A stretch of DNA of 61,302 nucleotides from Planctomycetales bacterium (GCA_020426595.1 JAGQPS010000002.1:1-61302); one strand, 5' to 3'; shown: positions 11,502 through 58,833, counted from the first letter of the stretch. A program made the numbers and translations. The notes: generated from the letters alone by a model not told the origin.

Positions 11502-11577
11502 CTGGATCAACTGACGAAGCGTTTGCGCGTCATCGCGTTTGCTCGCTTCGTCGACCTCGAGATCCTGGAACCTGTCC

Positions 11578-16305: not shown

Positions 16306-16357
16306 GCAACCATCTCCGTCAATCAATCGCGGAATCAACTCCCGCGCTGGCCAGGAT

Positions 16358-32907: not shown

Positions 32908-33120
32908 CAAACGCACCTTCAAACGACTTCGACATCACCGGGTGATTCGCGGGCGTTTCATGACGCTCGACCTCCGCGAATCGCAAAGTTCTTGACGAGC
33001 CGGGGGCTCGTCTGGCACCTTACTACTAAGTCGTGGGGGCGACTTGCAATCAGTCGACGACCATTGCCAACGGCAAGGGACATCGACTCGGTCGCTTATT
33101 TGACACAGGAGCCCGACAGG

Positions 33121-41365: not shown

Positions 41366-44300
41366 ATGAACCGACTCCGAATTGACGACCTCCACGTCGT
41401 ATCTCCGGTTAATGAGTCCGAGCAGGATCAGAGTTTTGGAGCCGGCTTGCGGCGACGGCGGCCCAAGGAATTTCGTGGCGGTGCCGTCGAGGTGTTGGAA
41501 GCCAAGCAGATGCTATCCGCCACGGCGGCCGTAGTGCTCAAGAATGGGGTTTTGTCGGTCCGAGGCACGGAGCGAAATGATCGTATCGTCGTGGCGGAGA
41601 AGCGAGGGCTGATTCGTGTGTCGATCAATGGCCGCTCCGTCAATATTTCAAATGCCGGAAAGGCCGCGAAGGCGTCCGCGGTGAAGCGAGTCGAGGTGTC
41701 GGGTCTGGGAGGAAATGACCGAATTGATGTCCGAACTCTCCGGCGATCGGCGGTGTTGCGTGGTGGTGCCGGTAATGACACGTTGCTAGGCGGCGGTCGT
41801 GCTGATCGCCTCGATGGCGGAAGTGGCAATGACACACTCCGAGGCTACGCCGGAAACGATCGAATACTCGGCGGATCTGGCAACGACTCGATCGACGGTG
41901 GTTCGGGAAACGATTATCTCGACGGACAGTCGGGCAACGACCGCATCAAGGGCGGTACCGGAAACGACGTCTTGCAGGGCGGCAGCGGCACGGATTCGCT
42001 CTACGGAGGCTCGGGAAATGATCGACTCACCGGTGGCGACGGCGCGGATCGTCTGTTCGGTGAAGCGGGCGACGATCGGCTCTGGGGCGACAAGCAAGAT
42101 ACGGTTCTCGACGACCGTTCGGGGAGTGATCGAGTCTCGATAGCCAACTCGGCACCCACCGACATACTCCTGAGCGCGCGACGGCTGACCGAGGGTGTTA
42201 ACGGTGCCGAGATCGGGCGAATTACGGTGGTCGACGCGGATGTGAACGACCAACATACGCTGACCGTTTCCGACAGCCGCTTTGAAGTTTTCAACGGCGT
42301 ACTCAAGCTCAAGGACAACGTAGCGATCGATTTCGAGACGGAACCGTCGGTGCAAATCTCGATTACGGCGAAGGATTCAAGCCAAGCCACCAAGACATCC
42401 GTGTTTTCGATCGAGGTAATCGATCTCAACGAGCTACCTGTCATCGGCAATCTGAAAACACTGGAGATCGGGCGTGATTCGGCGAGCACGCTTGTTAACC
42501 TCAGCATTGTCGATCCGGACGGAGATGCCTTTGAGGTTCATGCCTCGTCGAGCAGTGATCAAGTCTCCGCGACTATCGTCAATAATGCGCTCAAACTCAC
42601 GCCTGCCCTAGGATTTGTTGGAACATCGACGATCACGGTTCAAGTCAAGGACAAGACATCGGGCAAGTCCCTCGAGAAGGAGTTCCAACTTGTCGTTCGT
42701 GGCACGCGAGCCGAATTGGTAAATGGCGTCTTGGCGATTCGCGGATCCAATCAGGCCGACCACATTCGACTCAACGCGGAAGGCGCTTCCACTTCCGGCA
42801 AACTCGTCGTTCTGGATGGCGAGGCCGTGATTGGCACTTTCGAGGCCAAGAACGTTCGAGCGATTCAAGTCGAAGCGGGCGCCGGAGATGACATCATCGA
42901 CCTGACACAGGCCGTGATGAGTGCTTGGGTCCATGGCGGAAGTGGCAACGACACCATCCATGGTGGTTCAGGAGCCGATCACCTGTTTGGCTCGACGGGA
43001 GTCGACAAGATCTACGGCAATTCCGGCGCGGATGTGATCTACGGAGGCGACGATCAGTTCAACGATAAGGGAGAGTTGGTCGGAGTGGTGGACGGAGGCA
43101 CGGATGTTGACTTCCTTTCCGAAGGTACCGGCCGCAAGCTAGTCGCCTCAACCGATGATCGAGACATCGAAGCCATGGACTTCGAGGAGCGATCCTACTT
43201 CGATCTGTTGCACCAGTTTCGAGATGCCCATGGCTTTGTAATCTCCCAGACCGGTGACGGAATCGACCAGCGTGGCGACGCCATGCTTTTCACCGGACTG
43301 GCGGCGACGTTGGCTGCCCAGCGTGGTGATTCCGGTGCGGTGCTCGAACTGCTCAAGACCTTGAAAGACGAGCCGTTTGTTGACGAACTTGGGCGAACTC
43401 GCCTCGTGAGACATCCCGAGGTTTGGGATTACGTCAATGAGAACGGAGTTTATGTGCGGGAACGCCATGCCCCCGTGACCAAGGACGGCGTTGTCGGTGT
43501 TATCTCGGCCGTCTACTACGCATTCAAGGCTGGCGGCATGACGGAAGAGGTCCGTTCGTTGGCCAAGGAGGTCGCGACAAAGTACATCGATTATCTAATC
43601 GCCAATAACTGGATGACGATCGACCGGTACCCAGAGCATTACTGGGAAACTCGAGAACTCCCATCCGACGAAAACGACCCCGACAGTGACAAGAAGTCGT
43701 ACTTCTCGAACGTCTTTGGCGAGGGTGGTACCCGGGTCATGTACAAGGGAGTCGACGGTTACGCGTTGATGCCCAACGACCGATACGCGCTGAAGAACGC
43801 CGCGGCGGAAATGGGAATCGCCACCCAAGGCTGGTCGGTATGGGGTGGCCTAGGGGTGACGTTGGGCAAGGTCCTGGGTGATACCACCGCCGACTTTATC
43901 AGCGGTGTCGCCGACGATCTCGGCGATTGGGCAAGCGAGCGCGTGGGTGTATTCCTCAAGAGTATCTCGTTTGACGAGAGCTATAGCTTTCATGTGATTC
44001 CGGGACTGGATTGGACCCTCGTCAAGGGCGACGTCAAGCTCGAGATCTCGTCAGCCAACCGTGCGGGTATCGCCAACCTCGTGGGCGACGCCATTCGGTC
44101 CACGATCAAGACTCTCTTGGGTTCCACCATCGACAATGGCACGGAACTGGTCGCCCTGGCTAAGCAACTCTCGGATCTCCAAGGTCGTATCGTCGACCAG
44201 TTGTTGGATTCACTCCCCTCGTGGCTGCAAGGTGATAAGTGGCGTCCCTTGGTTGGCGACGCGATCCAGCAAGTCCTACCTTGGCTCAGTGGTGATGTAT

Positions 44301-45781
44301 TCGGTGAGCTGATTGCCTTCACGGTCTCGCATCGCATGGGAGAGTCCGACAACATCGTGGCTCACCTTTCATTCTGGCCAACATTGGTGGCCCTTGAGTC
44401 TCGGCCTGAACTCGTCGATTTGCTCATGCCTTCGATTCGGAACCTCGACAAGAAACTGAATCCCAGTTCGAGCGATGATTTCTTCGACACCGGCGCCTCC
44501 AAGATGGACATGGCTCTCTATGCGTGGCTCGCCGGTGAAGACAAGTTGGTGAGCAAGTACATCGAGTTGTTTGAATCGGATCGTCGATTCGACGCTCTCG
44601 CCTATGCGTGGAAGAAGGACCACAAGGAAAACGTCGAAAAGATCCTCGGTGATGGCGCGGGCACGAAGGATTCGGGCAATCATCGCCTGGAATATTTGCT
44701 GCTCAAGTCGTTGCAGCGGAGAGGCACTCCGCCCGCGTTCAGCGCGATCAAGAACGACTGGATCAAGCATTGGCGGGAGCAACTGAAGGCAATCGGAGAT
44801 CAGGCGGCCAAGGCTTGGCAGGACCTAAAATCCAACTTGGTGAAATTCGCTCAGGCCCTCGCGAAAGAGTTTGGAGTCGGCCTGGACAAGATCGGCTCGG
44901 CTCTCTGGAAAGTTTCCCAAAGTGTCGAGGGAATCGCGGCGGCTCTTTGGTCGGTCGAACAAAACCTGGGCAAGGTGGCCGCGACGCTCTGGAGCTTGAA
45001 ACCCGATCTAGGGCAAGTCGCATCGGCGCTTTGGAGCGTCAAGCAAGATGCCGTGCAAGTCTTCCAAGCAATGCTCAACGGAGCCAAGGTTGGGTTCGTT
45101 GACGCCATTCAAGCGGTCGTCGATGGCAAGCTCATTTCGGGCAACGCCGCCAGCGTGGCGAAGTTCTTGATCCTCGACGTGAAGACGGGCATTGGTACGG
45201 GAATCCTGCAACTCAAGAACTGGCTCAATGGCGATCTCGCCGGAGCTTTTTGGGGCGCGGTCAACGGTGCCAACTTGGGTTGGAAGGATGCGTTGAATGG
45301 CCTAACTTCCTCGGGCTTGGTTGCGAACAATTCCTACGAAATGGCCAAGTTCCTACTCAACACCGCCAAAGCGAATTTGAGTACCACGGCGACCGCCATC
45401 TCTCAATGGCTCAACGGAAACGTCAGTGCCGCCTTCTGGGCGATCTGCACTGGAGCGGGCAAGTCGCTCAAGGACGCGGTCAACGGAATCGTCTGGGCGG
45501 GACTCGTGAAGAACAACTCCTACGAAGTCGCCAAGTTCCTCCTCAACTCCGCCGGTGCCGGACTCTCCAAGACCGCCAAGGCGATCTCCGACTGGCTGGG
45601 TGGCGATCGTGATGCCGCCTTCTGGGCGATCGCATCCGGAGCTGGGAAGGGGTATGTCGACGCGACAAAGGCCCTGATCTGGGCTGATCTCCTCGGCAAC
45701 TCGTATACGACGGTGCTGAATTACCTTAAGTCGAAGCTTGGCCTTACCAGCGCTTTGAAAGTCGTCAACAGCATCTTCTAG
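41366..45781 (+). CDS. Large RTX (hemolysin-type calcium-binding repeat) protein with cadherin/Ig-like modules and a repeat-rich C-terminus
   Basis: 1471 aa. The N-terminal block has about 12 GGxGxD nonapeptides (GGAGNDTLLGG...GGSGNDRLTGGDGADRLFGEAGDDRLWGD). A cadherin-like module (ITVVDADVNDQHTL...VIDLNELPV) and a second RTX block (HGGSGNDTIHGGSGADHLFG...) follow. Next come ~700 aa of unknown function and then two kinds of tandem repeat. Confidence 0.9.
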   Translation: MNRLRIDDLHVVSPVNESEQDQSFGAGLRRRRPKEFRGGAVEVLEAKQMLSATAAVVLKNGVLSVRGTERNDRIVVAEKRGLIRVSINGRSVNISNAGKAAKASAVKRVEVSGLGGNDRIDVRTLRRSAVLRGGAGNDTLLGGGRADRLDGGSGNDTLRGYAGNDRILGGSGNDSIDGGSGNDYLDGQSGNDRIKGGTGNDVLQGGSGTDSLYGGSGNDRLTGGDGADRLFGEAGDDRLWGDKQDTVLDDRSGSDRVSIANSAPTDILLSARRLTEGVNGAEIGRITVVDADVNDQHTLTVSDSRFEVFNGVLKLKDNVAIDFETEPSVQISITAKDSSQATKTSVFSIEVIDLNELPVIGNLKTLEIGRDSASTLVNLSIVDPDGDAFEVHASSSSDQVSATIVNNALKLTPALGFVGTSTITVQVKDKTSGKSLEKEFQLVVRGTRAELVNGVLAIRGSNQADHIRLNAEGASTSGKLVVLDGEAVIGTFEAKNVRAIQVEAGAGDDIIDLTQAVMSAWVHGGSGNDTIHGGSGADHLFGSTGVDKIYGNSGADVIYGGDDQFNDKGELVGVVDGGTDVDFLSEGTGRKLVASTDDRDIEAMDFEERSYFDLLHQFRDAHGFVISQTGDGIDQRGDAMLFTGLAATLAAQRGDSGAVLELLKTLKDEPFVDELGRTRLVRHPEVWDYVNENGVYVRERHAPVTKDGVVGVISAVYYAFKAGGMTEEVRSLAKEVATKYIDYLIANNWMTIDRYPEHYWETRELPSDENDPDSDKKSYFSNVFGEGGTRVMYKGVDGYALMPNDRYALKNAAAEMGIATQGWSVWGGLGVTLGKVLGDTTADFISGVADDLGDWASERVGVFLKSISFDESYSFHVIPGLDWTLVKGDVKLEISSANRAGIANLVGDAIRSTIKTLLGSTIDNGTELVALAKQLSDLQGRIVDQLLDSLPSWLQGDKWRPLVGDAIQQVLPWLSGDVFGELIAFTVSHRMGESDNIVAHLSFWPTLVALESRPELVDLLMPSIRNLDKKLNPSSSDDFFDTGASKMDMALYAWLAGEDKLVSKYIELFESDRRFDALAYAWKKDHKENVEKILGDGAGTKDSGNHRLEYLLLKSLQRRGTPPAFSAIKNDWIKHWREQLKAIGDQAAKAWQDLKSNLVKFAQALAKEFGVGLDKIGSALWKVSQSVEGIAAALWSVEQNLGKVAATLWSLKPDLGQVASALWSVKQDAVQVFQAMLNGAKVGFVDAIQAVVDGKLISGNAASVAKFLILDVKTGIGTGILQLKNWLNGDLAGAFWGAVNGANLGWKDALNGLTSSGLVANNSYEMAKFLLNTAKANLSTTATAISQWLNGNVSAAFWAICTGAGKSLKDAVNGIVWAGLVKNNSYEVAKFLLNSAGAGLSKTAKAISDWLGGDRDAAFWAIASGAGKGYVDATKALIWADLLGNSYTTVLNYLKSKLGLTSALKVVNSIF
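44891..45058 (+). repeat. Intragenic 4 x 42-bp (14-aa) tandem repeat in RTX protein 1
   Basis: The units are IGSALWKVSQSVEG, IAAALWSVEQNLGK, VAATLWSLKPDLGQ and VASALWSVKQDAVQ. Confidence 0.85.
45158..45715 (+). repeat. Intragenic 3 x 186-bp (62-aa) tandem repeat in RTX protein 1
   Basis: The unit is AKFL(I/L)L..........I..WL(N/G)G.....AFW.A..GA.....DA.....W..L..NNSYE. Copies start at 45158, 45344 and 45530, and a half unit precedes them. Confidence 0.85.
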
Positions 45782-46578: not shown

Positions 46579-49500
46579 ATGAGTCGTCTCACTATCACTG
46601 ATCTCGTCATTTCATCGACTCCGAGTCTCGAGGATCAAGACCAGCAATTCGGAGCCGGTATTCGTCGGCGACGTTTGCGGGAATTCCAGTCAGCGACGGC
46701 GGAAGTGCTCGAGTCGAAGCAGATGCTCTCGGCGACGGCGACCGCGGTGTTCAAGAACGGCGTCCTGACGGTGAATGGCACGAGCCGCAGCGAGAAGATC
46801 GCGGTTACCGAAAACAAAGGCCAACTCCGAGTCCAAGTCAACGGCAAGAGCCTGCGGATCGCGGGGGCCGGCAGCCAGGTCGCCGCGACTCGAGTGAAAC
46901 AAGTGGCGGTCAACGGCAAGGCCGGCAACGATCGCATCGATGTTTCGTCCGTCAATCGAGTAACTAGGCTCGATGGCGGAGCGGGCAATGACACGATCCT
47001 TGGCGGCAAGAAAGGTGACACGATTTTCGGTGGATCGGGCAATGATCGACTCTACGGCCGAGCCGGCAATGACCGGATTTTCGGTGGGTCGGGCAACGAC
47101 CTCCTCGAGGGTGGATCGGGCAATGACTTTCTCGACGGACAATCGGGAAAGGACCGCATTAAGGGTGGCAGCGGGAACGATACGCTCAAGGGTGGAACGG
47201 AAAACGATCAGTTGATCGGCAACGAGGGGTCCGACCGACTGTATGGCGAATCGGGTGATGACGTTTTGATCGGAGGCGACTCCACCGACGTGTTGTATGG
47301 AGGTGCTGGGAACGATGAGTACATGGTCGGGAACGATGGCGACACAAGCGTCATTCGGGACGACCAGAAGGTTGAGGCCAATGATGGGAGCATCGAGAAA
47401 TTCATCAGCAAGCCGAAGGTAAACGTCAACTCTGTCAACACTCGGCGACCGACCCTGTTGGTAATCACACAAGGAGCGGCCACGACCAATGTTGGTGGGG
47501 CTGGCACGGGACGCCATGTGTATCCGTGGCAAGAGACCTTGGCTCAAGCGATGGAGGACGACTTGCGCAAGGCGGGCTCGCAAGTCCACACCATGGTCGT
47601 GAGCTGGAATTCCCTCGCTACGAATACGACTCAAACTGAGCGAGTCGCCAACCACATCAAGGAGTTTCTCGCCGCTCGATCCCAGCAGTGGGATGTTGTA
47701 TTGGTCGGACATAGCCGAGGAGCGATCTTCAACCAAGAGATTGCGGGACTTCTGGGCGATCCCAAGAACATGAATGTGTTGCAACACGTCATGATCGACC
47801 CGACGGCCGCGACTTCGATGGGCGATCAATATCCTCAGGGAACACCTAGGAATGTCGATCGAGCCATTGTCTACGACGATGGCTATCAGTTTCTTCCATT
47901 CGCGGCTGTTCGTGATGGTGAGCGAGTTGCCGGAGCGGAGTATCAACGAGTATCGCTGCCGGATACCGGGTATTACGATACCGCGGCGAGTCACAATCGA
48001 ATCGCTAAGTGGTATGCCCAAGGCGCTTACCATGCGGATCTTGACTGGCTGCTCTCGCAGAAGTCGACCGGACGGTATGCCGGCGAACAGACGAGTGACA
48101 ATGGTCGCGAATATGTCAGTGTCTCTGGCCCGGCCAAGGAACAGAACCTGATCGACGTCGGCTTCGATCCCAATCGCAACGGCGACATGCATGGTTACAT
48201 CAGCGTGCTGGGCGTCGGTGGAGTCGACATCAAGATCGGCAAGAGTGGGGTGCAAGCCGGAGGCGGCGTGACTTTTGGTGGATCAGCGGGAGTCGGCCTT
48301 TCCCAGGATGGCGTTTCGATCCATGTCACCGGTCCCGGTGCCGGGCCGCTCAATTACGGCTACGGGGTTGTCATCACCAAGGACGAGGCCACGGTCAACG
48401 CGGATGTCGGACCGCTCAATATCACGCTCAGCACCAAGGGTGGATCGATCTATGTCGGCGGAAAGAGAATCACGTTCAACAAGACGGTCGACAAGGCGGG
48501 CAAGTGGGTCGTAAACCAAATCCTGGCTTCGCGCGAACGCATCTCGACCACGCTGCAGAACTTCGAGCGCGTTCGGATCGAGAAGTTCGATCAAGCCGGA
48601 AAGCTCGTGGCCAAAGGCTGGAAGAATGGCTCGCAATGGGTGTCCCAGTCACTCAACAGCGCTGGCAAGGTATTGCTTCAGTGGACCTACCACGGCGGGT
48701 ATGGTTCGGCTCTCAAGATCTTGTCGCAATACGATGCTCAAGGAGCATTGTTGGCCACCCAGGAATTCGCCACGAATGGCGTTCGCTTGATCAACAAGTA
48801 CATCAACTCAAGCGGTCAGTGGGTCTCGCAGAAGTTCGATTCGGCCGGAAAGATGGTGAGCGAGTGGATTTATCACGGCAAACTCGGCTCTCAGCTCAAG
48901 CAATGGCGGGCCTGGACCTCGGCCGGCTTATCGAATTGGAAGGAATACGCAACCAATGGAGTGATGGTCGCCGAACGGTTCCTCGACAGTGCAGGGAAGT
49001 GGATCTCCAAGTCGTTCGACACCGCTGGCAAGCTGCTCAATCAGTGGAGCTACTTTGGCGGTTACGGGTCGGCGCTCCAGCAATGGAAATCGTGGAACGC
49101 CGCCGGAACATTCACCGGCATGCGGGAGTACCTCTCCAACGGAGTCAAGACTCTTGATCGTTGGTTGAACTCGAGTGGCAACTGGATCTCGCAGAAATTC
49201 AACTCGACTGGTCGGCTCGTAAATGAATGGATGTACCACGGCGGATACGGCTCCGTTCTGAAGCAATACAAAGCCTGGAGCGCGTCGGGGACGTTCACCA
49301 ACTGGTCTGAGTACTCGACCAACGGTGTCAAGACAGCCACTCGCTGGCTCGATTCAAGGGGACGGTGGATTTCCCAACGCCTTAACAGCGCGGGCAAGGT
49401 CCTCAATCAATGGCTCTACTTCGGAGGCTATGGCTCGAAGCTCCAGGAATGGGCCGAATGGTCGAGCGGCGGCAAGTTGCTCAATCTCGAGCGGTTCGCG

Positions 49501-49695
49501 ACCAACGGACTCAAGACCCTCGACGCTTACTGGTCAACCGCCGGCAATTGGGTGGAACGCACCTATCAGGACGGTAAGGAGATCGCCGTGAAGATCTGGG
49601 ACTCGGCCGGAAAGTACTTGGGCGACCAGTACAAGAACTTCAAGGACGCCGCGTCCAAGTTGGATCCGACCACAAAGAACTGGTGGCCATTCTAA
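46579..49695 (+). CDS. RTX protein with an alpha/beta-hydrolase (lipase-like) domain and C-terminal ~60-aa tandem repeats
   Basis: 1038 aa. The first ~240 aa are collinear with RTX protein 1, including the GGxGxD block. The central region has a nucleophile elbow VLVGHSRGA (GxSxG). The C-terminal repeats are listed separately. Confidence 0.9.
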   Translation: MSRLTITDLVISSTPSLEDQDQQFGAGIRRRRLREFQSATAEVLESKQMLSATATAVFKNGVLTVNGTSRSEKIAVTENKGQLRVQVNGKSLRIAGAGSQVAATRVKQVAVNGKAGNDRIDVSSVNRVTRLDGGAGNDTILGGKKGDTIFGGSGNDRLYGRAGNDRIFGGSGNDLLEGGSGNDFLDGQSGKDRIKGGSGNDTLKGGTENDQLIGNEGSDRLYGESGDDVLIGGDSTDVLYGGAGNDEYMVGNDGDTSVIRDDQKVEANDGSIEKFISKPKVNVNSVNTRRPTLLVITQGAATTNVGGAGTGRHVYPWQETLAQAMEDDLRKAGSQVHTMVVSWNSLATNTTQTERVANHIKEFLAARSQQWDVVLVGHSRGAIFNQEIAGLLGDPKNMNVLQHVMIDPTAATSMGDQYPQGTPRNVDRAIVYDDGYQFLPFAAVRDGERVAGAEYQRVSLPDTGYYDTAASHNRIAKWYAQGAYHADLDWLLSQKSTGRYAGEQTSDNGREYVSVSGPAKEQNLIDVGFDPNRNGDMHGYISVLGVGGVDIKIGKSGVQAGGGVTFGGSAGVGLSQDGVSIHVTGPGAGPLNYGYGVVITKDEATVNADVGPLNITLSTKGGSIYVGGKRITFNKTVDKAGKWVVNQILASRERISTTLQNFERVRIEKFDQAGKLVAKGWKNGSQWVSQSLNSAGKVLLQWTYHGGYGSALKILSQYDAQGALLATQEFATNGVRLINKYINSSGQWVSQKFDSAGKMVSEWIYHGKLGSQLKQWRAWTSAGLSNWKEYATNGVMVAERFLDSAGKWISKSFDTAGKLLNQWSYFGGYGSALQQWKSWNAAGTFTGMREYLSNGVKTLDRWLNSSGNWISQKFNSTGRLVNEWMYHGGYGSVLKQYKAWSASGTFTNWSEYSTNGVKTATRWLDSRGRWISQRLNSAGKVLNQWLYFGGYGSKLQEWAEWSSGGKLLNLERFATNGLKTLDAYWSTAGNWVERTYQDGKEIAVKIWDSAGKYLGDQYKNFKDAASKLDPTTKNWWPF
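48625..49533 (+). repeat. Intragenic tandem repeat: 5 full units of ~60-61 aa, plus partial units on both sides
   Basis: The unit is (N/D)S.G.W(I/V)SQ.F(N/D)(S/T)AGK....W.Y.GGYGS.L.QW..W...G.......EY.TNGV.....(W/F)L. Confidence 0.85.
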
Positions 49696-49707: not shown

Positions 49708-49740
49708 CGGCCACCCGGTTGATCGCCGGGTGGCCGTTTT
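49708..49740 (+). terminator. Probable Rho-independent terminator or attenuator after RTX gene 2
   Basis: cggccacccgg-ttgatcg-ccgggtggccg forms an 11-bp GC-rich stem, followed by tttt cctggtttt. It lies 13 nt after the stop at 49695. Confidence 0.65.
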
Positions 49741-49870: not shown

Positions 49871-50122
49871 ATGTCCTCCGAGACGACCTCGTCAATCAAT
49901 GTGTCCGACACGATCCCGGCCGATCGCCAAGTTCTCAGTCAGGATGATAAGACCGACCTAGCCGAAGCGATTGGCCAGACGGGATCGCCCGGTATCGAAG
50001 ATGACCCAGCATTCGATCCAGAACCTTCCATCGGGCCGGATTCCGATCTCATCGACTCGCCCGTTGATGTTGATCCTCTCGCCGATCCAGGGGTCGAGGA
50101 ATCCATCGATGCTACCGAGTAG
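49871..50122 (+). CDS. Small, very acidic Pro/Asp-rich hypothetical protein (83 aa)
   Basis: ATG start with only a weak SD site. It ends 12 nt before the GTG of the cNMP/C39 ORF. Its composition resembles 45877..46080 (DDPAFDPEPSIGPDSDLIDSPVDVDPLADPG). Confidence 0.4.
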   Translation: MSSETTSSINVSDTIPADRQVLSQDDKTDLAEAIGQTGSPGIEDDPAFDPEPSIGPDSDLIDSPVDVDPLADPGVEESIDATE

Positions 50123-50133: not shown

Positions 50134-52086
50134 GTGAGCGCGCGTCGATTTGAATGCAATACGGATTCCCTCAAGTCAATCGAGTGTTGGAACAGAGCTT
50201 CCCACACACGTCACTTGTCGACCTTGCTCGTTTTACTATCCCAGGTGGTGTCTCTCGTGGCGTTGCCCTCGCCGATGTTGTCCCTGCGTCAGTGCTTCCA
50301 GCTTCAACTGGCCGGTCCATGCCAGTTCGAGCCGTGGGATACCCGGCTTGAACTGCTCGAGTATCGAGCGGGCCAGGTGCTATTCGAGCCAGACGAAGAA
50401 GGCTCGGCCGCGTTTCTACTCGTCGCGGGGCGGCTCAGACTATACGGCCGCAACTCAACGATGGGACAGGTTGCTCCCGGGACATTGGTCGGTGGCCATA
50501 GCCGGGCCGAACAATGGAATCGGCAGTTGGGATGCCGGGCATCCGAGCACTCCTGGGTCTACCGGTGGCCTCGTGTTGATTTCGATGATTTCCTACGGGC
50601 TCACCCGCGCTTGGTTCCGGTTTTCGATAAGACGTTGGCGGAGGCCGCGTTCCTTGAGCTGTCAAAGCTCTCCCGCCTCTTGGCGACCGTTCCATCCCAA
50701 CTGCTCATGCCGCTGGTCGATCAGTTGGTTTGGCACGAATTCGATGAACAAGAGATCGAGCTGGACGCGGAGCTCGTGCAGGATGTCTTCGCCGTCGTGC
50801 AGGGCTCGATCGAATTAACAAGCGTCAATGCCTCCGACGGACGCCCCGTATGCGCCTTCGGCCCTGGCGAATTGTTCACATTGCAGGAGTGGCCGCCTGG
50901 CGAAAGACTAAATGTCGCGACGAGCGGCGACGCCATTTGTTATCGTCTCCCGTCGGACGTCCTGGCCCAGTATCGATCCGAATTACCCCTGCTTGAACCG
51001 GCGATTCGGCGTACGTTTCGTCCACCGTCGGAGGTCGCCGATAAACCAGACATGGATCGGTATTCGTTGGTTTTGCGATCCGAAGACGACGGCACACCGA
51101 CGAATTTCAGCGGCGATCCACGAGCCACTCATGAGCAGGACGACAAACTCAAGCTCCGCCCGCTTCTTGAGTTGCTACGGATGGAAGCCCTCGCCAGTTG
51201 CCTACCGCCGCGCCGAATCCTCGGTCTAATCGATTCGGCGCGCGAGCGGCTGTTTGTCGATGGTTCATTGCTCCATGTAACGGGCCATTCGCTCGGAGTC
51301 GAGCAAGAGTGGATTTGTTTGTTGGTCGAGGGAAGTGTCGATGTCGTCGCGGTATCGCCGGTCGAGCGACGCATGGTCGCCAAATTGCTGCCTGGAGAAT
51401 TCTTCCTAATTGAACAACAGGAGTCTCACAAAGTGGGCTCCCTGCCAAAGCACTACGTGGCCAATGGACATGTGCGTTGTCTGATCTTTCCATTGACGGA
51501 CGTATTGCGAGGCTCGTCCACGCCCGAGCAAGCAGCGACGATTCTCGCTCGGCTCTCGGATCGAGAAATCGCGTTCTTAAAACGACGAACCTTGGCGGCG
51601 TCCCAAGGTAACCCGATCCGCCACGCGTCTCGATCTCGAGAGCGATCGATCATTGATCAGCAATATCCATGGATCGGACAAGCCCAGGAATCCGAATGCG
51701 GACTGATCGCACTGGCGACGGTCGCGAGATTTCACCAGTTGCCGGTCAACATCGACGAATTGCGCGGCCGAATTCAGCTGATGCCGCTGGGCCTCAGCCT
51801 TCTAGAAATGCAGCGGATCGCCGAGTCAATCGGTCTGGATGCCGAAGTCCTCCACGCCAACGAGCAAACGCTTGAGACGATAGAACTGCCGGCGGTCTTG
51901 CATTGGAAAGACTCGCATTACGTCGTGCTTTACCGAATTGGAAATGGAACGGTGCTTTACGCCGATCCGGAGATTGGTTTGATCAAGACAACGGTACGTC
52001 ACCTGTTGTCGTCCTGGAATGGACGGCTACTGGCCGTTTCGCCGCGAACTTCGTATCGATCCGACGCGGAATTCAATCCGGTCTAG
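50134..52086 (+). CDS. cNMP-binding-like domains (up to three, degenerate) fused to a C-terminal peptidase C39 domain, with no ABC transporter part
   Basis: The C-terminus QQYPWIGQAQESECGLIALATVARFHQLPV...LPAVLHWKDSHYVVLYRIGNGTVLYADPEIG shows the C39 Cys, His and Asp pattern. The upstream segments resemble CAP/cNMP beta-barrels (EYRAGQVLFEPDEEGSAAFLLVAGRLRLY and VFAVVQGSIELT...FGPGELF and WICLLVEGSVDVV...LLPGEFF). The start may instead be the ATG at 50275. Confidence 0.85.
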   Translation: MSARRFECNTDSLKSIECWNRASHTRHLSTLLVLLSQVVSLVALPSPMLSLRQCFQLQLAGPCQFEPWDTRLELLEYRAGQVLFEPDEEGSAAFLLVAGRLRLYGRNSTMGQVAPGTLVGGHSRAEQWNRQLGCRASEHSWVYRWPRVDFDDFLRAHPRLVPVFDKTLAEAAFLELSKLSRLLATVPSQLLMPLVDQLVWHEFDEQEIELDAELVQDVFAVVQGSIELTSVNASDGRPVCAFGPGELFTLQEWPPGERLNVATSGDAICYRLPSDVLAQYRSELPLLEPAIRRTFRPPSEVADKPDMDRYSLVLRSEDDGTPTNFSGDPRATHEQDDKLKLRPLLELLRMEALASCLPPRRILGLIDSARERLFVDGSLLHVTGHSLGVEQEWICLLVEGSVDVVAVSPVERRMVAKLLPGEFFLIEQQESHKVGSLPKHYVANGHVRCLIFPLTDVLRGSSTPEQAATILARLSDREIAFLKRRTLAASQGNPIRHASRSRERSIIDQQYPWIGQAQESECGLIALATVARFHQLPVNIDELRGRIQLMPLGLSLLEMQRIAESIGLDAEVLHANEQTLETIELPAVLHWKDSHYVVLYRIGNGTVLYADPEIGLIKTTVRHLLSSWNGRLLAVSPRTSYRSDAEFNPV

Positions 52087-52128
52087 AATGATTGATCCGT
52101 GTCCCATCACATTCCCAAGGTGTTTTCC

Positions 52129-52908
52129 ATGTCCGAGGTTCATGCATCCACGGTATTAGGGACAGTCAACGGCTCGCCCGTGAAATGGACCACGTTCCTC
52201 AGCGCGCTGAAGTGCGAGGGAGCCTGGAGTGCCAGCGTGGCGGCCTTGCTTCGATACGTTTTCATCGCCGAGCTCGCTTCTCGCCATCAAATAGCGATCG
52301 CCGACTCGGAGTTGCAGGCGGCGGCGGACCAATTTCGGGCGCGACGAGGCTTGCACAAGGCAAGCGATACCTATCAGTGGATCGCGCAAGAGTTGATCGA
52401 GGAGGATGAATTTGCTCGCCTTGTCGAGCATGAGTTGATCGTCGACAAGTTGAAGCGAGTCTTCTCGGACGAGGCGGTCCAGAACAAGTTCACCGCGGAA
52501 CGGAACCGTTTTGATCGGGCAAGACTGGCGCAAATCGTGGTCGACTCGAAGGGCCTGGCGGACGAGCTGCTAACTCGATTGGTCGAGGATGGCGACGACT
52601 TCTCAACGCTCGCCCGCCAACATTCGTTGGATCAGGACTCGAAGGACAACGGCGGATTTCTCGGCATCTTGAACCGAACCGATATGTCTTCGGAAGTCGC
52701 CGACACCGTATTCGCCAGTCAACCAGGAAACACGCTCGGCCCCTTTCGCATCGCCGGCGCCTACCACCTCGTGAAGACTCTCGAGCTACTCCCGGCGAGT
52801 CTCGATGAGGCGACTAGTGAGTTACTCCGCAATGAGATGCTCGACGAGGCGATCACACTGGCGATCGCGGCCGCGGATATCGAATTGAGGTTTGATATCG
52901 AGGACTAA
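52129..52908 (+). CDS. PpiC/parvulin-type peptidyl-prolyl cis-trans isomerase (SurA/PrsA-like)
   Basis: An N-terminal chaperone-like helical part is followed by ARLAQIVVDSKGLADELLTRLVEDGDDFSTLARQHSLDQDSKDNGGFLGIL...GNTLGPFRIAGAYHLVK. The ORF is open from the GTG at 52099. Confidence 0.85.
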   Translation: MSEVHASTVLGTVNGSPVKWTTFLSALKCEGAWSASVAALLRYVFIAELASRHQIAIADSELQAAADQFRARRGLHKASDTYQWIAQELIEEDEFARLVEHELIVDKLKRVFSDEAVQNKFTAERNRFDRARLAQIVVDSKGLADELLTRLVEDGDDFSTLARQHSLDQDSKDNGGFLGILNRTDMSSEVADTVFASQPGNTLGPFRIAGAYHLVKTLELLPASLDEATSELLRNEMLDEAITLAIAAADIELRFDIED

Positions 52909-53007
52909 TCGTGGCTCGCTGGGGCGAGCAAGGTGTTGCATGGATTAGAGCGAGGTACGGGAATTCCGCTCCGGCCATCGCGTCACGCGGGGAGGTCGAT
53001 ACCTTTC

Positions 53008-54912
53008 ATGTTGGACCGTGTCATCAACCCCTACCGCATTCAGCGATGGTGGCGGCTCGCCGATCGCGCGATTCGACTCTCCGATTCATGGCAACGGCTC
53101 TCCTTGGATGATCTTGCGGTTCAAGCGAGGCAACTGTCGGGACGGATTCGGTCCGGGAGTCCGGTTCGAGAACATCGGGTGGAGTTAGGGGCCGTCGTGC
53201 GGGAGGCGGCTCGTCGTTTGCTCGGTACTCCGCACTACCATGTGCAGCTCGTGGGCGGATTTGCCATTCTCGAAGGCAACATCGCAGAGATGCAGACCGG
53301 CGAGGGTAAGACGCTGACGGCGATCCTGCCCGCGTTCGCGCGTGCGTCGGCGGCCCATGGATGTCACGTGCTGACCTCGAACGATTATCTTGCCGAAAGA
53401 GACGCGGCTAAGCTCCGTCCCGTGTACGAACTGTTGGGGCAGTCCGTCGGCTGCGTCATCGCGGAGATGGAGCCGGAGCAACGCCGAGCCGCGTATCGAT
53501 GCGATGTGACGTATAGCACCGCCAAGGAAGTTGGGTTCGATTTTCTACGCGACCGAATTGCACGGGGCGTGAGCACGACGGCTCATGAGATCCCTCGAGT
53601 AACCCTGATGCGTTCCGATCAAGAGCCGCTTCAGCGAGGACACTACTTCGCCTTGGTTGACGAAGCGGACGCCATTCTGATTGACGAGGCCACCACGCCG
53701 CTCATCATTTCGGCCCCCGAGTCTCCGGATCCGCCGACCGTCTCGTTGTACCGGTGGGCCAGCCGGTTCTGTCAAACTCTCGATCCAACGGCCGACTTTG
53801 ACTTTGATGCGAAACGCCGACAAGTGAGACTCGGAGAGTCGGGCTGCCGCCTCGCACTTCTCGCACCCAAGCCGGCGATCCTGAATCGAATCGAAACCGA
53901 ACGCATCTACACCCAGGTCGAAAACGCCCTCTGCGCGCGGCTTGCTTACCTTCGCGACAAGGAATACGTCGTCGTGGATGGAAAAGTGGTCATTGTCGAT
54001 GAGTCCACGGGCCGAATCATGGACGGTCGAAAATGGCAAGACGGTATTCACCAGGCGATCGAGGCGAAGGAACATCTTCCGATCAGCGGAAGCACCGGTA
54101 GCGCCGCGCAAATCGCGTCCCAGGCGTACTTCAAGCTATACACGCATCTTGGCGGAATGACGGGGACGGCCGCGTCGGCGCGACGCGAACTCAAGAAGAC
54201 GTATGAGCTGCGCGTCGCGTCTGTCCCACCTCATCGCCGGAATCAGCGAAGAGGATTTCGTCCTCGCGTTTTTGTCACTGCCAATGCCAAGTGGCGCGCG
54301 ATCGCTCAAGAAGTTCAGGCTTACGTACGGGGAGGGCGTCCCGTCCTCGTAGGTACGCCCTCGGTGGAATCCTCCGAATGCCTGGGCGCCGTGCTTGCGG
54401 AACTGGGAATTACCGCCTCGATCTTGAATGCCAAGTTTCATCGTCAGGAAGCCGAGATCATCGCTCGCGCCGGACAGCCTGGATCGGTGACGATCGCCAC
54501 GAACATGGCCGGACGAGGCACGGACATCTTGCTTGAAGGACAAGTCAAGTCGGCGGGTGGACTGCACGTCATCGCGACCGAGATTCACAGCTCTCCTCGG
54601 ATCGATCGGCAACTCGTTGGACGAGCGGGACGCCAAGGTGACCCAGGGTCGTTTCGGTTTTTCATGTCGCTTGACGACGAACTGCTTCGAGTGCTACCCC
54701 AGTCTCGCCGTAAGTTGCTGCAACGCTGGGCCGCGTGGATGGCTATCCGAGGCGAATTACCCAGCAGCTTCGCGAGACTCTTCCGGGCCACGCAGTCTGG
54801 CCTGGAGCGGCGTGGTCGTAGCCAACGAGGTCGAATGCTGAAGTTCGAGCAGCAAAGAAAGGAACGCTACGACCTTCTTTGTCTTGATCCCTACCTCGAG
54901 TACGTGTCGTAA
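53008..54912 (+). CDS. SecA-like ATPase with NBD1, PPXD and NBD2, truncated at the start of the helical scaffold domain
   Basis: SecA-type N-terminus MLDRVINPYRIQRWW...LSLDDLAVQARQL, Walker A MQTGEGKTL and Walker B LVDEADAILIDEATTPLIIS. The PPXD core is VIVDESTGRIMDGRKWQDGIHQAIEAKE. NBD2 motifs are GRPVLVGTPSVESSE, LNAKFHRQEAEIIARAGQPGSVTIATNMAGRGTDI and RIDRQLVGRAGRQGDPGSFRFFMSLDDELL. Only ~70 aa follow, giving ~634 aa in total. Confidence 0.85.
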   Translation: MLDRVINPYRIQRWWRLADRAIRLSDSWQRLSLDDLAVQARQLSGRIRSGSPVREHRVELGAVVREAARRLLGTPHYHVQLVGGFAILEGNIAEMQTGEGKTLTAILPAFARASAAHGCHVLTSNDYLAERDAAKLRPVYELLGQSVGCVIAEMEPEQRRAAYRCDVTYSTAKEVGFDFLRDRIARGVSTTAHEIPRVTLMRSDQEPLQRGHYFALVDEADAILIDEATTPLIISAPESPDPPTVSLYRWASRFCQTLDPTADFDFDAKRRQVRLGESGCRLALLAPKPAILNRIETERIYTQVENALCARLAYLRDKEYVVVDGKVVIVDESTGRIMDGRKWQDGIHQAIEAKEHLPISGSTGSAAQIASQAYFKLYTHLGGMTGTAASARRELKKTYELRVASVPPHRRNQRRGFRPRVFVTANAKWRAIAQEVQAYVRGGRPVLVGTPSVESSECLGAVLAELGITASILNAKFHRQEAEIIARAGQPGSVTIATNMAGRGTDILLEGQVKSAGGLHVIATEIHSSPRIDRQLVGRAGRQGDPGSFRFFMSLDDELLRVLPQSRRKLLQRWAAWMAIRGELPSSFARLFRATQSGLERRGRSQRGRMLKFEQQRKERYDLLCLDPYLEYVS

Positions 54913-55864: not shown

Positions 55865-57928
55865 TTGACGCGATTTATTGCCGCGTCTACAAGCCCAGCG
55901 GAGACTTTGTCGCGGTTAGGGAGAATCTCAAATCGGGGCTGGTGCGTGGCAGGTATTCGGACATTTCTCGTTTTAGTCACTTCGACGATTGCCTTGGCTG
56001 GCTGCAACCTCTGGCGAACCGGGACCGAACATTCGGGGCCGATTCGAGAGCTGGAGTGGGCTCAATCGCTGGCGATTGAATATCCCGATGCCTTGACCGA
56101 AGCGGCGGACGAGCAAGAACTTCCCTCGAGGCCGCGTAGTGTTGCTGGCGAGACGCCCGACACGTTTCACGACATCACCTTATCCGCGGCCATTGAATTC
56201 GCGCTTCAAAACAGCGAGGTCTTGCGAGATCTGGGTGGCCGAATATTGGTCAGTCCAGACTCGGCGGTCACGCGACTGGATCCTGCCATTCGTGAGAGCG
56301 ATCCGCTGTTTGGAGTCGAGGGAGCCCTCAGTCAGTTCGATGCTCAATTCACAAGTAGCCTCTTCAGCAGCTACAACGACCGGGGACTAAACAATGTGCT
56401 TACGAGCGGAGGAGCTCGTGAACTGGCGCAGGACACGCTGGAATTCCAAACGGAAATCAGCAAGCTCGCGGCCACCGGCACTCGTTTCAGCCTTCGCAAC
56501 GTTACCGGACATGACCGCAGCAACCAGAGCGGCAATCTCTTTCCGGCCGCATGGGACGTGCAATACGAGGCGACCGCGCGGCAACCGTTGTTGCAGGGTG
56601 CGGGAGTTACGTTCAATCGGATCGCTGGACCATCCGCTCGACCTGGTTTCAATTTCTCGAATGGCGTTCTGATCGCGCGTATTAACACCGACGTTTCGCT
56701 CGCGGATTTCGAGGCCAGTTTGCTGAGCTTCCTGAGCGACATCGAGGAAGCGTATTGGGACCTCTACTTCGCCTACCGCGACCTAGACGCCAAGATTGCG
56801 GCGCGCGACAGCGCGCTGGAAACATGGCGGCGAGTAAAGGCGGCCGCTGAGGCAAGTTTGGAGGGGGGCGAGGCATATCAAGAGGCGCAGGCTCGGGCCC
56901 AATATCTGCAATTCCAACAGGCGGTTCACGATGCGCTCAACGGAACGCGTGAAGCTGGATCGGCCAACGGGGTTTACCTCACCGAGCGTCGACTTCGCCG
57001 CATGCTAGGCATGGTGGCGACCGACGATGTCCTGTTACGTCCCTCGGAGGAGCCCACTCGGGCGGAAGTGCGAGTCGATTGGTTTAGCAGCCTAAACCAA
57101 GCACTTGCTCAAAGAAATGAACTGCGACGCTCGGCATGGAATATCGAGAAAAGCCAATTGGAGTTGCTCGCCGCCAAGAACTTTACCTTGCCACGTCTTG
57201 ACGCGATCGGCACCTATCGCTGGCGGGGATTTGGCCAAGAACTCTCCGGCCCAGGATCGACTCGATTCGCGAGTGCTTATGACGATTTGGCCAGTGGCGA
57301 TCACCAAGAGTGGCAGCTTGGCATGGAGCTTAGCATGCCGTTTGGCCAACGACAGGCATGGGCCGGAGTACGCAATGCCGAGCTCAAACTGTCACGAGCA
57401 CGAGCCATTCACCGAGAGCTCGAGCACCAAGTGGCTCACGACCTGAGCGACGCGGTCGCCGAAGTCGAACGGGCTCACCTGGCTCTCGTCGTTCAAGGCG
57501 ATCAGCTACGGGCGGCCCGCGAACGTCGAGATGCAACGACCGCGGCATACCAGACTGATAAGGTGCGGCTCGACCTCCTGCTCGATGCCCAGAGGTCGCT
57601 CGCGGACGTCGAATCGACTTATTACCGCTCGCTCGCCGGCTATGCCAAAGCCCTCAAGGACTTCCACGTCTCACAGGGGACGCTCTTAACTTACAACCAA
57701 GTTTTTCTAGAGGAGGGCCCGTCGCCGATCAAAGCCTACTCCGACGCGGCGAGGTTCCGGGAGAAGTGGCCGTTGGTTCCGCCCGATCAACGAATCATCG
57801 AGCCAATGCCGATTTCACGAGGTGCGTTAGTCGAGGAGATTACTTTCGTGGAAACCGCATCAGCCGCGAACAACCCAACCCTCGAGGAAGCGAACGGACT
57901 CCCTTCGCACGGCGAGGCGAACGATTAG
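55865..57928 (+). CDS. TolC-family outer membrane efflux protein (probable lipoprotein)
   Basis: Lipobox TSTIALAGC. Two OEP-type repeats have the typical pattern (LSAAIEFALQNSEVL...; LNQALAQRNELRRSAWNIEKSQLELLAAK...). The TTG start at 55865 is uncertain. Confidence 0.85.
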   Translation: MTRFIAASTSPAETLSRLGRISNRGWCVAGIRTFLVLVTSTIALAGCNLWRTGTEHSGPIRELEWAQSLAIEYPDALTEAADEQELPSRPRSVAGETPDTFHDITLSAAIEFALQNSEVLRDLGGRILVSPDSAVTRLDPAIRESDPLFGVEGALSQFDAQFTSSLFSSYNDRGLNNVLTSGGARELAQDTLEFQTEISKLAATGTRFSLRNVTGHDRSNQSGNLFPAAWDVQYEATARQPLLQGAGVTFNRIAGPSARPGFNFSNGVLIARINTDVSLADFEASLLSFLSDIEEAYWDLYFAYRDLDAKIAARDSALETWRRVKAAAEASLEGGEAYQEAQARAQYLQFQQAVHDALNGTREAGSANGVYLTERRLRRMLGMVATDDVLLRPSEEPTRAEVRVDWFSSLNQALAQRNELRRSAWNIEKSQLELLAAKNFTLPRLDAIGTYRWRGFGQELSGPGSTRFASAYDDLASGDHQEWQLGMELSMPFGQRQAWAGVRNAELKLSRARAIHRELEHQVAHDLSDAVAEVERAHLALVVQGDQLRAARERRDATTAAYQTDKVRLDLLLDAQRSLADVESTYYRSLAGYAKALKDFHVSQGTLLTYNQVFLEEGPSPIKAYSDAARFREKWPLVPPDQRIIEPMPISRGALVEEITFVETASAANNPTLEEANGLPSHGEAND

Positions 57929-58833
57929 CGAGATTCGGGGATGGCATCGAAATGAAGTGTTCCAACTTCTCCCGGCTTCACCCGCAGCTCTCGGTTGTCT
58001 AGTTCGGCCCATACTCGCACGAGGTTCCGAACTGGCTGTACCTCGGGATCGATGAAGACGATTTTCCCCGTCAACTCGATTGGCTCGTTCCGAGCGTCAC
58101 TGGGGCGAAATACGACCTGTTGTTGCGGAGTTAGCGACCGGGCGAATGCCGCGTTCACATAAATCTCCGCCCTGACGACATCCAAGCGTATGAGACGCAC
58201 GACGGGGTCGCCCGGATTAACCCACTCGGCATTCTCGTGATGCCGTTTGACGACGATGCCGGTGAACGGCGCCGTTATTCGACGTCGAGCCACGCGTACC
58301 TGGGCAAGATTGGCCTCGCGCTCCTTGAGTTGAGCGGTGAGTTCCGCCTCGTCATGATCGCGTTGAGCCTGCTCCAGCGACAAGCGGGATTTCTCCAACT
58401 CGAGCTGAAGCTTCTCCAGTTCCGTGCGGGACACCGTGTTGGTGAACAGCTCGTTCGCATAATGGGACATCCGAAGCTGGGAATCGTTGACTTCAATGGT
58501 CTTTTGGGCCAGTCGCTGATCCACGTCGCTCGATGCCTTGATAATTGCAATTTGGTGGCCCAGCAACGCCACCTCGAGTTCGGCGTCGGCTAAATCGCTA
58601 TCGAGCCGGGCAATCAAATCTCCCTTTTGTATCGTCTCTCCTGGCTCGAATTTAATCTCCTCGATCACGCCCGCTTCGCGCGCCGGAACATCGATATCGG
58701 CGACCGGAAACAACTGAGCCTGATAGGAAGTTTCTCCCTCTTGAGCGCGAGCCGTCACCGCTTGCCCTACGGCCCAGACGTAACACCACATCGTTCCCAT
58801 CGCGATAACCGCGTATTGTGTTCCACGAGACAT
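57925..58833 (-). CDS. HlyD-family periplasmic adaptor
   Basis: One TM helix (YAVIAMGTMWCYVWAVGQAV), a lipoyl-like hairpin (AREAGVIEEIKFEPGETIQKGDLIARLD), a coiled coil, then APFTGIVVKRHHENAEWVNPGDPVVRL. Its stop overlaps the TolC stop by 4 bp (convergent). The ORF is open to 58923. Confidence 0.85.
   Translation of the reverse strand: MSRGTQYAVIAMGTMWCYVWAVGQAVTARAQEGETSYQAQLFPVADIDVPAREAGVIEEIKFEPGETIQKGDLIARLDSDLADAELEVALLGHQIAIIKASSDVDQRLAQKTIEVNDSQLRMSHYANELFTNTVSRTELEKLQLELEKSRLSLEQAQRDHDEAELTAQLKEREANLAQVRVARRRITAPFTGIVVKRHHENAEWVNPGDPVVRLIRLDVVRAEIYVNAAFARSLTPQQQVVFRPSDARNEPIELTGKIVFIDPEVQPVRNLVRVWAELDNRELRVKPGEVGTLHFDAIPESR

Follow-up and report, generated by a model that had tools for sequence, protein, structure and literature searches.

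The DNA analysed here, a 61,302-nucleotide stretch from a Planctomycetales bacterium (GCA_020426595.1, JAGQPS010000002.1:1-61302; hereafter the window), carries at 50257..52086 (+) a gene for a 609-residue protein in which three modules resembling cyclic nucleotide-binding (CNB) domains precede a C39 peptidase domain (3xCNB-C39). Judged from its sequence and predicted structure, the product is a C39 leader peptidase of the HetC lineage that is naturally detached from a transporter. It is probably a cytoplasmic, possibly ligand-gated pro-leader peptidase that acts on the cargo proteins encoded next to it. The substrates would be the neighbouring large proteins, here two RTX proteins starting at 41366 and 46579, which begin with a bipartite leader that recurs on large proteins beside related genes. 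C39 leader peptidases are usually seen as built-in parts of ATP-binding cassette (ABC) exporters, and a naturally soluble family with fused sensor-type domains and a parvulin partner would represent another way of linking export to the removal of a leader. The surrounding machinery belongs to a locus type that has already been described (PMC4452313); its link to the C39-parvulin module and the bipartite leader appears to be new and was not found in the literature searched.

A predicted soluble C39 peptidase fused to three CNB-like modules

The maximal open reading frame (ORF), confirmed in the window at 50134..52086 (+), opens at GTG 50134 and gives a reading of 650 residues. The gene caller chose GTG 50257, and in an alignment all 5 full-length relatives begin near the position equivalent to this internal codon, which is therefore the probable start; the moderately hydrophobic 41-codon extension from 50134 is, for the same reason, probably not translated. 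An N-terminal membrane anchor arising from the 50134 start was likewise ruled out, since all relatives start at the 50257 equivalent. The gene and its parts are as follows.

50257..52086 (+), 3xCNB-C39 gene (product P0001, 609 residues, stop 52086); ORF, gene caller, Pfam, start position of relatives
50314..50721 (+), CNB-like domain 1 (residues ~20-155); Pfam cNMP_binding stretch, alignment, model with predicted local distance difference test (pLDDT) >90
50722..51015 (+), CNB-like domain 2 (residues ~156-253); Pfam, alignment, model, cassette pattern count
51130..51516 (+), CNB-like domain 3 (residues ~292-420); alignment to relatives, model, Foldseek
51664..52050 (+), C39 peptidase domain; Pfam, alignment to PCAT1/LahT, conservation in relatives
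51679-51681 (Gln475), 51697-51699 (Cys481), 51916-51918 (His554) and 51964-51966 (Asp570) (+), C39 catalytic codons; alignment

The Pfam model Peptidase_C39 (PF03412) matches residues 511-639 of the 650-residue reading with 103.4 bits (cutoff 22; E=1.1e-29), and the match extends over positions 2-132 of the 133 in the profile. In phmmer alignments Gln475, Cys481, His554 and Asp570 (609-residue numbering) fall on the oxyanion and catalytic residues of PCAT1 (4RY2) and LahT, and Cys, His and Asp do not vary across 44 relatives, in which Gln is nearly invariant. The complete C39 pattern that a preliminary description of this DNA had reported at the C-terminus is thus borne out, and the encoded peptidase is predicted to be catalytically complete and competent. 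A reading of the domain as a Tox-PL-C39 polymorphic toxin was dropped, the protein being a separate cytoplasmic one and no C-terminal toxin module of a secreted protein.

Up to three CAP-like barrels had been proposed upstream of the peptidase. Pfam cNMP_binding (PF00027) matches two stretches of the protein (62.8 bits, cutoff 27.5), and the third barrel is backed by alignment to relatives with three Pfam CNB domains and by an AlphaFold model. A single-sequence model (pLDDT 32) was unusable and was replaced by one built on a 44-sequence alignment (mean pLDDT 81), in which three beta-barrel modules, a long helix (residues 423-449, after CNB-like domain 3) and the C39 domain can be recognised. 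The top Foldseek matches of this model, and the best structural matches to its N-terminal two-thirds, are tandem-CNB proteins, namely Plasmodium PKG and regulatory subunits of PKA (PKA-R), with E-values down to 1e-19.

The 609-residue protein has no predicted transmembrane (TM) segment and is predicted to be soluble and cytoplasmic. No ABC domain (ABC_membrane, ABC_tran) was present in any scanned ORF of the window, and tblastn searches of the 61-kb window with the ABC halves of two HetC-type relatives gave no match at E<=1, ruling out a hidden ABC domain or a frameshift. The next gene starts 13 nt past the stop codon. The NCBIfam models of peptidase-containing ABC transporters (PCATs; TIGR01193, TIGR03796) match the protein over their first ~130 positions only, far below cutoff. 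With TM prediction, domain scans and tblastn all negative in the window, the claim that neither TM helices nor a nucleotide-binding domain follow, and that the peptidase is detached from an ABC transporter, stands. Loss of the catalytic Cys or His, and an ABC domain concealed by a frameshift, which the preliminary description had named as grounds for abandoning its interpretation, were both looked for and neither was found.

The suspected degeneracy of the phosphate-binding cassettes was also evident. The canonical FGE...R[ST]A[ST] cassette, counted with a strict pattern, occurs 0 times in the target and 0-1 times in the 3xCNB relatives; 10 of 11 HetC-type exporters carry it once or twice, and one, P0021, has none. 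The cassette of CNB-like domain 1 reads VGGHS...R.LGCRA, with the Glu missing, and His81, Trp87 and Cys93 of this domain are invariant in six aligned 3xCNB-C39 proteins. That of domain 2 is degenerate in the target and near-canonical (FGE...R) in five aligned relatives, two of which match the strict pattern; domain 3 of the target is degenerate as well. Because the canonical cassette is missing, any ligand of this copy is unlikely to be cAMP or cGMP. As a side observation, a gene for a class III adenylate/guanylate cyclase (L005 8350-10155, -) adjoins the C39-parvulin pair of the relative P0010, whose CNB domain 2 retains a canonical phosphate-binding cassette, FGERALLERGCRTAT; together, the cyclase and the cassette hint at true control by cyclic nucleotides in some family members.

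A mainly planctomycetal family without the ABC half

An exhaustive HMMER search of representatives returned 4391 relatives at E<=1e-3. Word-indexed protein searches, queried first with the target and then with a profile of six sequences, had returned only the target and two unrelated proteins, and pattern scans of genome and metagenome contigs found only classical ABC exporters with an N-terminal C39 domain (L001, L008, L009) and no family members. Three architectures are present in the Pfam-scanned sample of relatives: 3xCNB-C39 proteins of ~600 residues without an ABC part, to which the target, P0002, P0003, P0004, P0007 and P0010 belong; 2xCNB-C39 proteins of ~400 residues, also without an ABC part; and 2xCNB-C39-ABC proteins of ~1030 residues, of the HetC type. 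In a neighbour-joining tree of the C39 domains, calculated with no bootstrap, 5 of the 6 3xCNB proteins, nearly all 2xCNB proteins and the ABC-fused proteins fall into separate groups. Because the three architectures group largely apart, the soluble forms do not appear to be recent truncations; they make up a family, mainly from planctomycetes, in which the ABC half of HetC-type exporters was lost or was never present. A member in the complete genome of Lignipirellula cremea is annotated only 'cyclic nucleotide-binding domain-containing protein', and others bear names such as 'CRP-like cAMP-binding protein'. The label of L. cremea QDU94529.1, a soluble 3xCNB-C39 protein listed as 'Lactococcin-G-processing and transport ATP-binding protein LagD', looks wrong.

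The target shares with HetC of Nostoc PCC 7120 and other CNB-C39-ABC exporters the placement of CNB modules N-terminal to an apparently active C39 domain. It differs from them in having neither the ABC membrane domain nor the nucleotide-binding domain, in its three CNB modules instead of one or two, in its conserved parvulin partner and in its presumed substrates of 1000-1900 residues. With the peptidases of PCAT1, ComA, LagD and LahT (MEROPS C39) it has in common the fold family, the catalytic set and the expected Gly-Gly/Ala/Ser specificity; those enzymes are naturally tethered to a transporter and couple cleavage to export, whereas the target is naturally soluble, by all predictions, and fused to sensor-type domains. 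The excised LahT150 domain works as a soluble C39 enzyme (PMC10885120). The C39-like domain (CLD) of HlyB, to which the target shows phmmer similarity (E=2e-4), is a C39-fold module that handles RTX proteins in a type-I-like system; unlike the target, which keeps the full catalytic set, it has no catalytic Cys, serves substrates with C-terminal signals and is part of an ABC transporter.

A bipartite leader on the candidate cargo proteins

Two genes upstream of the 3xCNB-C39 gene encode the candidate cargo.

41366..45781 (+), candidate cargo 1, RTX/Ig protein, 1471 residues; profile scans, leader alignment
41366-41443 (+), cargo 1 leader part 1 (residues 1-26, ending FGA)
41444-41521 (+), cargo 1 leader part 2, GLRRRRPKEFRGGAVEVLEAKQMLSA
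46579..49695 (+), candidate cargo 2, RTX protein, 1038 residues, with C-terminal ~48-residue repeats; profile scans, leader alignment
46579-46656 and 46657-46734 (+), cargo 2 leader parts 1 and 2

The two RTX proteins are 54% identical over their first ~260 residues, and both start with the pattern M-x-R-L-x-I-x-D-L ... D-Q-x-F-G-A-G-[LI]-R-R-R-R ... E-V-L-E-x-K-Q-M-L-S-A-T. Neither of them has a predicted TM segment or a classical signal peptide. The same start is found on QDU94536.1, a 1889-residue protein of L. cremea, the body of which is otherwise unrelated to the window RTX proteins, and pattern searches identified the leader on an ORF directly downstream of the C39 gene in locus L007 and on an ORF downstream of the C39-parvulin pair in locus L003. 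The full leader occurs nowhere else in the ~190 kb translated in six frames, where the other matches were two to a looser pattern in non-leader contexts. A sixth leader came from a 2xCNB-C39 locus (L014) that was fetched after the prediction; it begins 134 nt past the C39 stop codon and is matched by a hidden Markov model (HMM) of the leader with E=1.3e-9 within the locus. This copy was missed by the gene caller, its ORF (11304-11585) being out of frame with the called 544-residue gene body (11495-13126); the frameshift may be genuine or may stem from the assembly.

Altogether, the six leaders come from five loci, all are on large proteins encoded by CNB-C39 genes' neighbours, and G-A-G is invariant in them. 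A cut at FGA|G would place Gly at -2 and Ala at -1 in all six. Double-glycine leaders follow a rule of a GG, GA or GS site with hydrophobic residues at -4, -7 and -12 (PMC10885120). The four leaders from outside the window have hydrophobic residues at -7, -12 and -15, and position -4 is hydrophobic in L003, L007 and L014 and Ala in L. cremea (L012). The segment just before GAG in the L003, L007 and L012 leaders gives weak, sub-threshold matches to GG/GA lantibiotic leader models, and Pfam and NCBIfam scans detected no curated leader family at the N-termini of the window cargo. The proposal that a soluble leader peptidase serves the adjacent cargo thus gains support from a conserved family and from a leader recurring on neighbouring large proteins. 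The products of two small acidic ORFs in the window, which had been put forward as further substrates, showed no leader match; as they are without the bipartite leader, they were set aside as unlikely substrates.

Cargo 2 contains, at residues ~640-1000 (window 48500-49600), about six repeats of ~48 residues of the form NGV...W(L/I)xSxGxW(I/V)SQxFxSAGKxxxxWxYxGGYGSxLxxW. The annotation of the L. cremea cargo as 'YwqK family antitoxin'-like suggests repeats of the MORN/YwqK type.

A parvulin partner and a secondary SecA_DEAD locus

The genes around the cargo and the peptidase encode a parvulin, a truncated SecA and a set of envelope proteins.

36625..38850 (-), M50-type HExxH membrane metalloprotease fused to an HlyD adaptor (M50-HlyD), 741 residues, at least 6 TM segments; profile scans
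39105..41102 (+), GAF-HlyD protein, 665 residues, 1 TM segment; profile scan
49708..49736 (+), terminator-like hairpin between cargo 2 and the C39 operon, 12-bp stem with 10 G-C pairs
49871..50122 (+), small acidic Pro-rich ORF, 83 residues, first gene of the C39 operon; no family match
52099..52908 (+), parvulin/PpiC-like protein, 269 residues; Pfam Rotamase, adjacency in relatives
52933..54912 (+), secondary SecA_DEAD ATPase, 659 residues; profile scans, SecA alignment, L. cremea orthologue
55865..57928 (+), TolC-like outer-membrane factor (Pfam OEP); profile scans
57925..58923 (-), HlyD/RND-type periplasmic adaptor, 332 residues; profile scans

Gene context was compared in ten loci with soluble CNB-C39 genes, the window included; several of these contigs are only 2-5 kb long. 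A Rotamase-domain (parvulin/PpiC-type) gene directly adjoins the CNB-C39 gene in 8 of the 10, and seven of the adjacent parvulins share 25-49% mutual identity over nearly their full length, from which they appear to be orthologous, a conserved partner co-inherited with CNB-C39. The parvulin of the window has no predicted TM segment and scores 105.4 bits against TIGR04500 (PpiC-related peptide maturation; cutoff 180), being a parvulin-fold relative and not a member of that family. No ABC exporter gene was found in any of the 10 loci, as judged by tblastn for the window, L005, L010, L011 and L012 and by called genes elsewhere.

The SecA_DEAD protein aligns to residues 9-610 only of Bacillus subtilis SecA. 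It retains nucleotide-binding domain 1, the preprotein cross-linking domain, nucleotide-binding domain 2 and the start of the scaffold helix, and is without the helical wing domain, the two-helix finger and the C-terminal tail. The M50-HlyD protein has a weak match at its N-terminus to PqqD-like proteins, resembling the recognition element (RRE) of peptides that are made by ribosomes and then modified post-translationally (RiPPs), and matches the model of the daptide HExxH protease with E=1e-60, below cutoff. Its family is large and near-ubiquitous in Planctomycetes, with or without C39 nearby.

L. cremea shares with the window the order C39, parvulin, truncated SecA, and its array continues with GAF-HlyD, M50-HlyD, HlyD, a small acidic ORF and the 1889-residue protein. 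Identity between the two genomes is 55% for the SecA-like protein, 43% for M50-HlyD, 37% for the parvulin, 36% for GAF-HlyD, 29-36% for the C39 protein and 27% for HlyD (to HlyD-343).

These components are those of the secondary SecA_DEAD locus described by Kamneva, Poudel and Ward in 2015, which comprises a SecA_DEAD protein without scaffold and wing, GAF-HlyD, Peptidase_M50-HlyD, HlyD/biotin-lipoyl and sometimes OEP proteins, has no ABC transporter and occurs in several phyla, components absent from a locus being encoded elsewhere in the same genomes (PMC4452313). Those authors suggested that SecA_DEAD acts as the ATPase and that M50 might form a pore, and called the role of the locus "completely unknown" (PMC4452313). 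The window matches every component, likewise with no ABC transporter: its 36625-58923 segment contains the full set, orthologous to that of L. cremea and to alphaproteobacterial plasmid loci. Neither C39, CNB or rotamase/parvulin proteins nor a leader or a named substrate is mentioned in the main text or supplementary text of PMC4452313, and no follow-up paper on the locus was found in the literature searched. By comparison with that description, the planctomycetal loci examined here appear to have acquired two additions, the C39-parvulin module and the bipartite leader. The parvulin partner, the truncated SecA paralogue and the 2015 account of the locus type were all absent from the preliminary description.

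A search of plasmids with the SecA-like protein (tblastn) yielded three alphaproteobacterial loci with orthologous SecA_DEAD, M50-HlyD and HlyD genes, none of which has a C39 or parvulin gene. Adjacent to two of the three, immediately upstream of these genes, is a giant gene whose product starts with the LEPR-XLL motif: on Mesorhizobium ciceri plasmid NZ_CP088148.1 (L015/L016, record 16982-48538) a gene of 31.5 kb, with a basic stretch followed by F-E-A-L-E-P-R-L-L-L-S-A-D, and on Pseudosulfitobacter plasmid NZ_CP085155.1 (L017/L019, record 324509-363265) a gene of 38.8 kb, with a basic stretch followed by M-E-A-L-E-P-R-F-L-L-S-A-D. The LEPR-XLL model NF012209 ('LEPR-8K') scores 34.1 bits on the Mesorhizobium protein (cutoff 17), and the other giant protein is annotated 'LEPR-XLL domain-containing protein'. 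Part 2 of the planctomycetal leader can be likened to the F-E-A-L-E-P-R-L-L-L-S-A motif, and the second half of the leader HMM aligns to LEPR-XLL, weakly (11 bits). The window motif differs in sitting behind a 26-residue extension; LEPR-XLL stands near the N-terminus with no double-glycine-type extension, and leader part 1 is absent from both giant proteins. Because the alphaproteobacterial loci without C39 and parvulin have cargo without this first half, the extension seems to track with the C39 gene, in small counts (five loci with both, two with neither).

Other genes accompany the plasmid loci: in Mesorhizobium the giant gene is separated from the secretion genes by one for a DUF3467 protein, and in Pseudosulfitobacter a gene for a SapC-family protein sits inside the secretion cluster, between M50-HlyD and SecA_DEAD. 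The public label 'prepilin peptidase' of the SecA_DEAD orthologue at L017 19863-21887 looks wrong.

A proposed route and its alternatives

The step to which we commit is the first: the C39 domain would bind leader part 1 (residues 1-26) and cut after Gly-Ala in F-G-A|G. Second, this cut would expose part 2, a basic stretch followed by the LEPR-XLL-like E-V-L-E-x-K-Q-M-L-S-A. Third, the parvulin would help to hand the processed cargo to the truncated SecA_DEAD protein, with export via the M50-HlyD, GAF-HlyD, HlyD and TolC-like envelope proteins. Fourth, the CNB modules may gate the peptidase, by analogy with PKA-R, PKG and HetC; this and the third step are the weakest. Both the FGA|G cleavage by CNB-C39 and the export route are inferences. 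For the fourth step, PKA-R and PKG provide a precedent of tandem CNB modules that auto-inhibit an attached or bound catalytic domain; the target differs from them in that its effector is a peptidase and in that its cassettes lack the residues that bind the cyclic phosphate and the ribose. HetC needs its CNB domain in order to function, and the ligand of that domain is ppGpp or GTP, not cAMP (PMC10986499). One may speculate that M50-HlyD also acts on leader part 2, in a further step of processing or recognition, because this protein combines a weak match to a PqqD-like RiPP recognition element with homology to the leader-removing daptide protease.

Taken as a whole, the scheme would make CNB-C39 a signal-gated licensing protease that unmasks an LEPR-XLL-like signal for ABC-independent, type-I-like export, with the truncated SecA as motor and M50-HlyD as inner-membrane receptor or conduit. 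We put this fuller version forward tentatively and consider it possible but doubtful. If true, it would provide the first substrates, targeting signal and regulatory step for the orphan secondary SecA_DEAD locus.

Several observations speak against the proposed route. The main weakness at this locus lies in the window leaders, the least canonical of the six: they keep FGAG and the residues at -12 and -15 and are polar at -4 (Ser or Gln) and -7 (Gln), two positions that must be hydrophobic for LahT-type enzymes (PMC10885120). Of the 5 loci in which the flanking DNA is long enough to judge, only 2 have SecA_DEAD next to C39, and orthologues of M50-HlyD often occur without C39 nearby. The 24-position model NF012209 gave no match at E<=10 in the cargo of the window, L012, L003 or L007, and the resemblance of leader part 2 to LEPR-XLL is one of motif, with the 11-bit HMM alignment. 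With the CNB pockets degenerate, ligand regulation may have been lost. Finally, an ABC exporter could be encoded elsewhere, the inspected DNA being 61 kb of the genome.

This last point leads to a split PCAT, in which the protein would be a detached HetC-type half that docks on a peptidase-less ABC exporter encoded elsewhere, the SecA_DEAD and M50-HlyD genes being unrelated. All characterised C39 leader peptidases work with an ABC exporter (PMC10885120), and the nearest relatives outside the soluble family are 2xCNB-C39-ABC proteins (P0005, P0006), with 26-32% identity. We nevertheless regard a split PCAT as unlikely: no ABC exporter gene is within reach in any of the ten loci, several of them on contigs of only 2-5 kb, gene order and orthology tie C39 to the parvulin, with SecA_DEAD part of the same operon-like array in two genomes, and most C39 domains of the soluble forms group apart from the ABC-fused ones.

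Distinctly unlikely, in our judgement, is that removal of the pro-leader serves maturation only, activating or releasing large proteins that are exported by another route, with the adjacency of SecA_DEAD coincidental or regulatory. Such an arrangement would suit the 3 of 5 evaluable loci in which the C39-parvulin pair has no SecA_DEAD gene within 10 kb, as well as the near-ubiquity of M50-HlyD in Planctomycetes regardless of C39. However, the cargo is without a classical signal peptide or TM segment, the N-terminus that would remain after the cut is LEPR-XLL-like, a motif adjoining the same machinery in other phyla, and the parts that a locus lacks are encoded at other sites of its genome (PMC4452313).

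Signalling genes near the relatives, comprising ECF (extracytoplasmic function) sigma factors (L003, L014), Ser/Thr kinases (L005, L014), the class III nucleotidyl cyclase in L005 and an FHA-GAF-SpoIIE phosphatase near P0002, would fit a protease that answers to a second messenger and cuts not cargo leaders but a regulatory target, for instance the parvulin or an anti-sigma factor. None of these neighbours recurs consistently between loci, in contrast to the parvulin and the large proteins with the leader, which are conserved, and the invariant GAG leader matches known C39 specificity, which makes a signalling protease very improbable. Least probable is a non-proteolytic receptor or chaperone that binds the substrate N-terminus and passes it to the machinery, as HlyB-type C39-like domains bind RTX substrates without cutting: it would accommodate window leaders without hydrophobic -4 and -7 residues, but the catalytic Cys is gone from HlyB-type domains, whereas the target has the whole set of Gln, Cys, His and Asp, the last three of which show no variation among 44 relatives.

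For the SecA_DEAD locus, the bipartite leader names candidate substrates, a candidate targeting signal and a specific peptide bond. If the link to LEPR-XLL holds, it bears on the export of some of the largest bacterial proteins (10,000 residues or more). The family may also have practical use as a source of a natural stand-alone double-glycine leader peptidase, the sequence tolerance of which may differ from that of LahT150, as the candidate substrates here are without hydrophobic -4 and -7 residues.

Small acidic ORFs and other features of the loci

The small acidic ORF at 49871-50122 has an analogue after cargo 1 (45877-46080), and in L. cremea (L012 13352-13675) and L005 (5412-5738) the large-protein gene upstream is likewise followed by a small ORF of similar composition. 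These four ORFs from three loci encode Pro-rich products of 67-108 residues, with 25-30% Asp+Glu in the three that were counted. Three of the four large genes preceding them carry the bipartite leader; in the fourth (L005) the contig end removes the N-terminus. The small products could be cargo-specific chaperones. They were rejected as a conserved family, their similarity being compositional only and without a family match, and the upstream small ORFs of other CNB-C39 loci are unrelated to one another.

Planctomycete-type ECF sigma factor genes (PF07638) adjoin CNB-C39 in L003 (184-789) and L014 (8381-8977), the latter of which has genes for a caspase-like protein and a Ser/Thr kinase as well. 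Scanning the window for Rfam families and tRNAs gave no match. A second pair of GAF-HlyD (792 residues, 1 TM segment) and HlyD (366 residues) genes is located at 15238-18736 (-); this GAF-HlyD protein is 30% identical to that of L. cremea and has no M50-HlyD, SecA_DEAD or C39 gene adjacent. Near this pair lies a divergent ORF of 620 residues (18937-20799), and between the SecA-like and TolC-like genes an ORF of 211 residues with a signal-peptide-like N-terminus (55045-55680, -), both without a family match. The segment 24503-29348 encodes a PSCyt1/PSCyt2/PSD1 protein followed by a DUF1501 protein, and a DUF1598 protein is encoded at 32992-34953; these are hallmark planctomycetal families and place the window in Planctomycetota.

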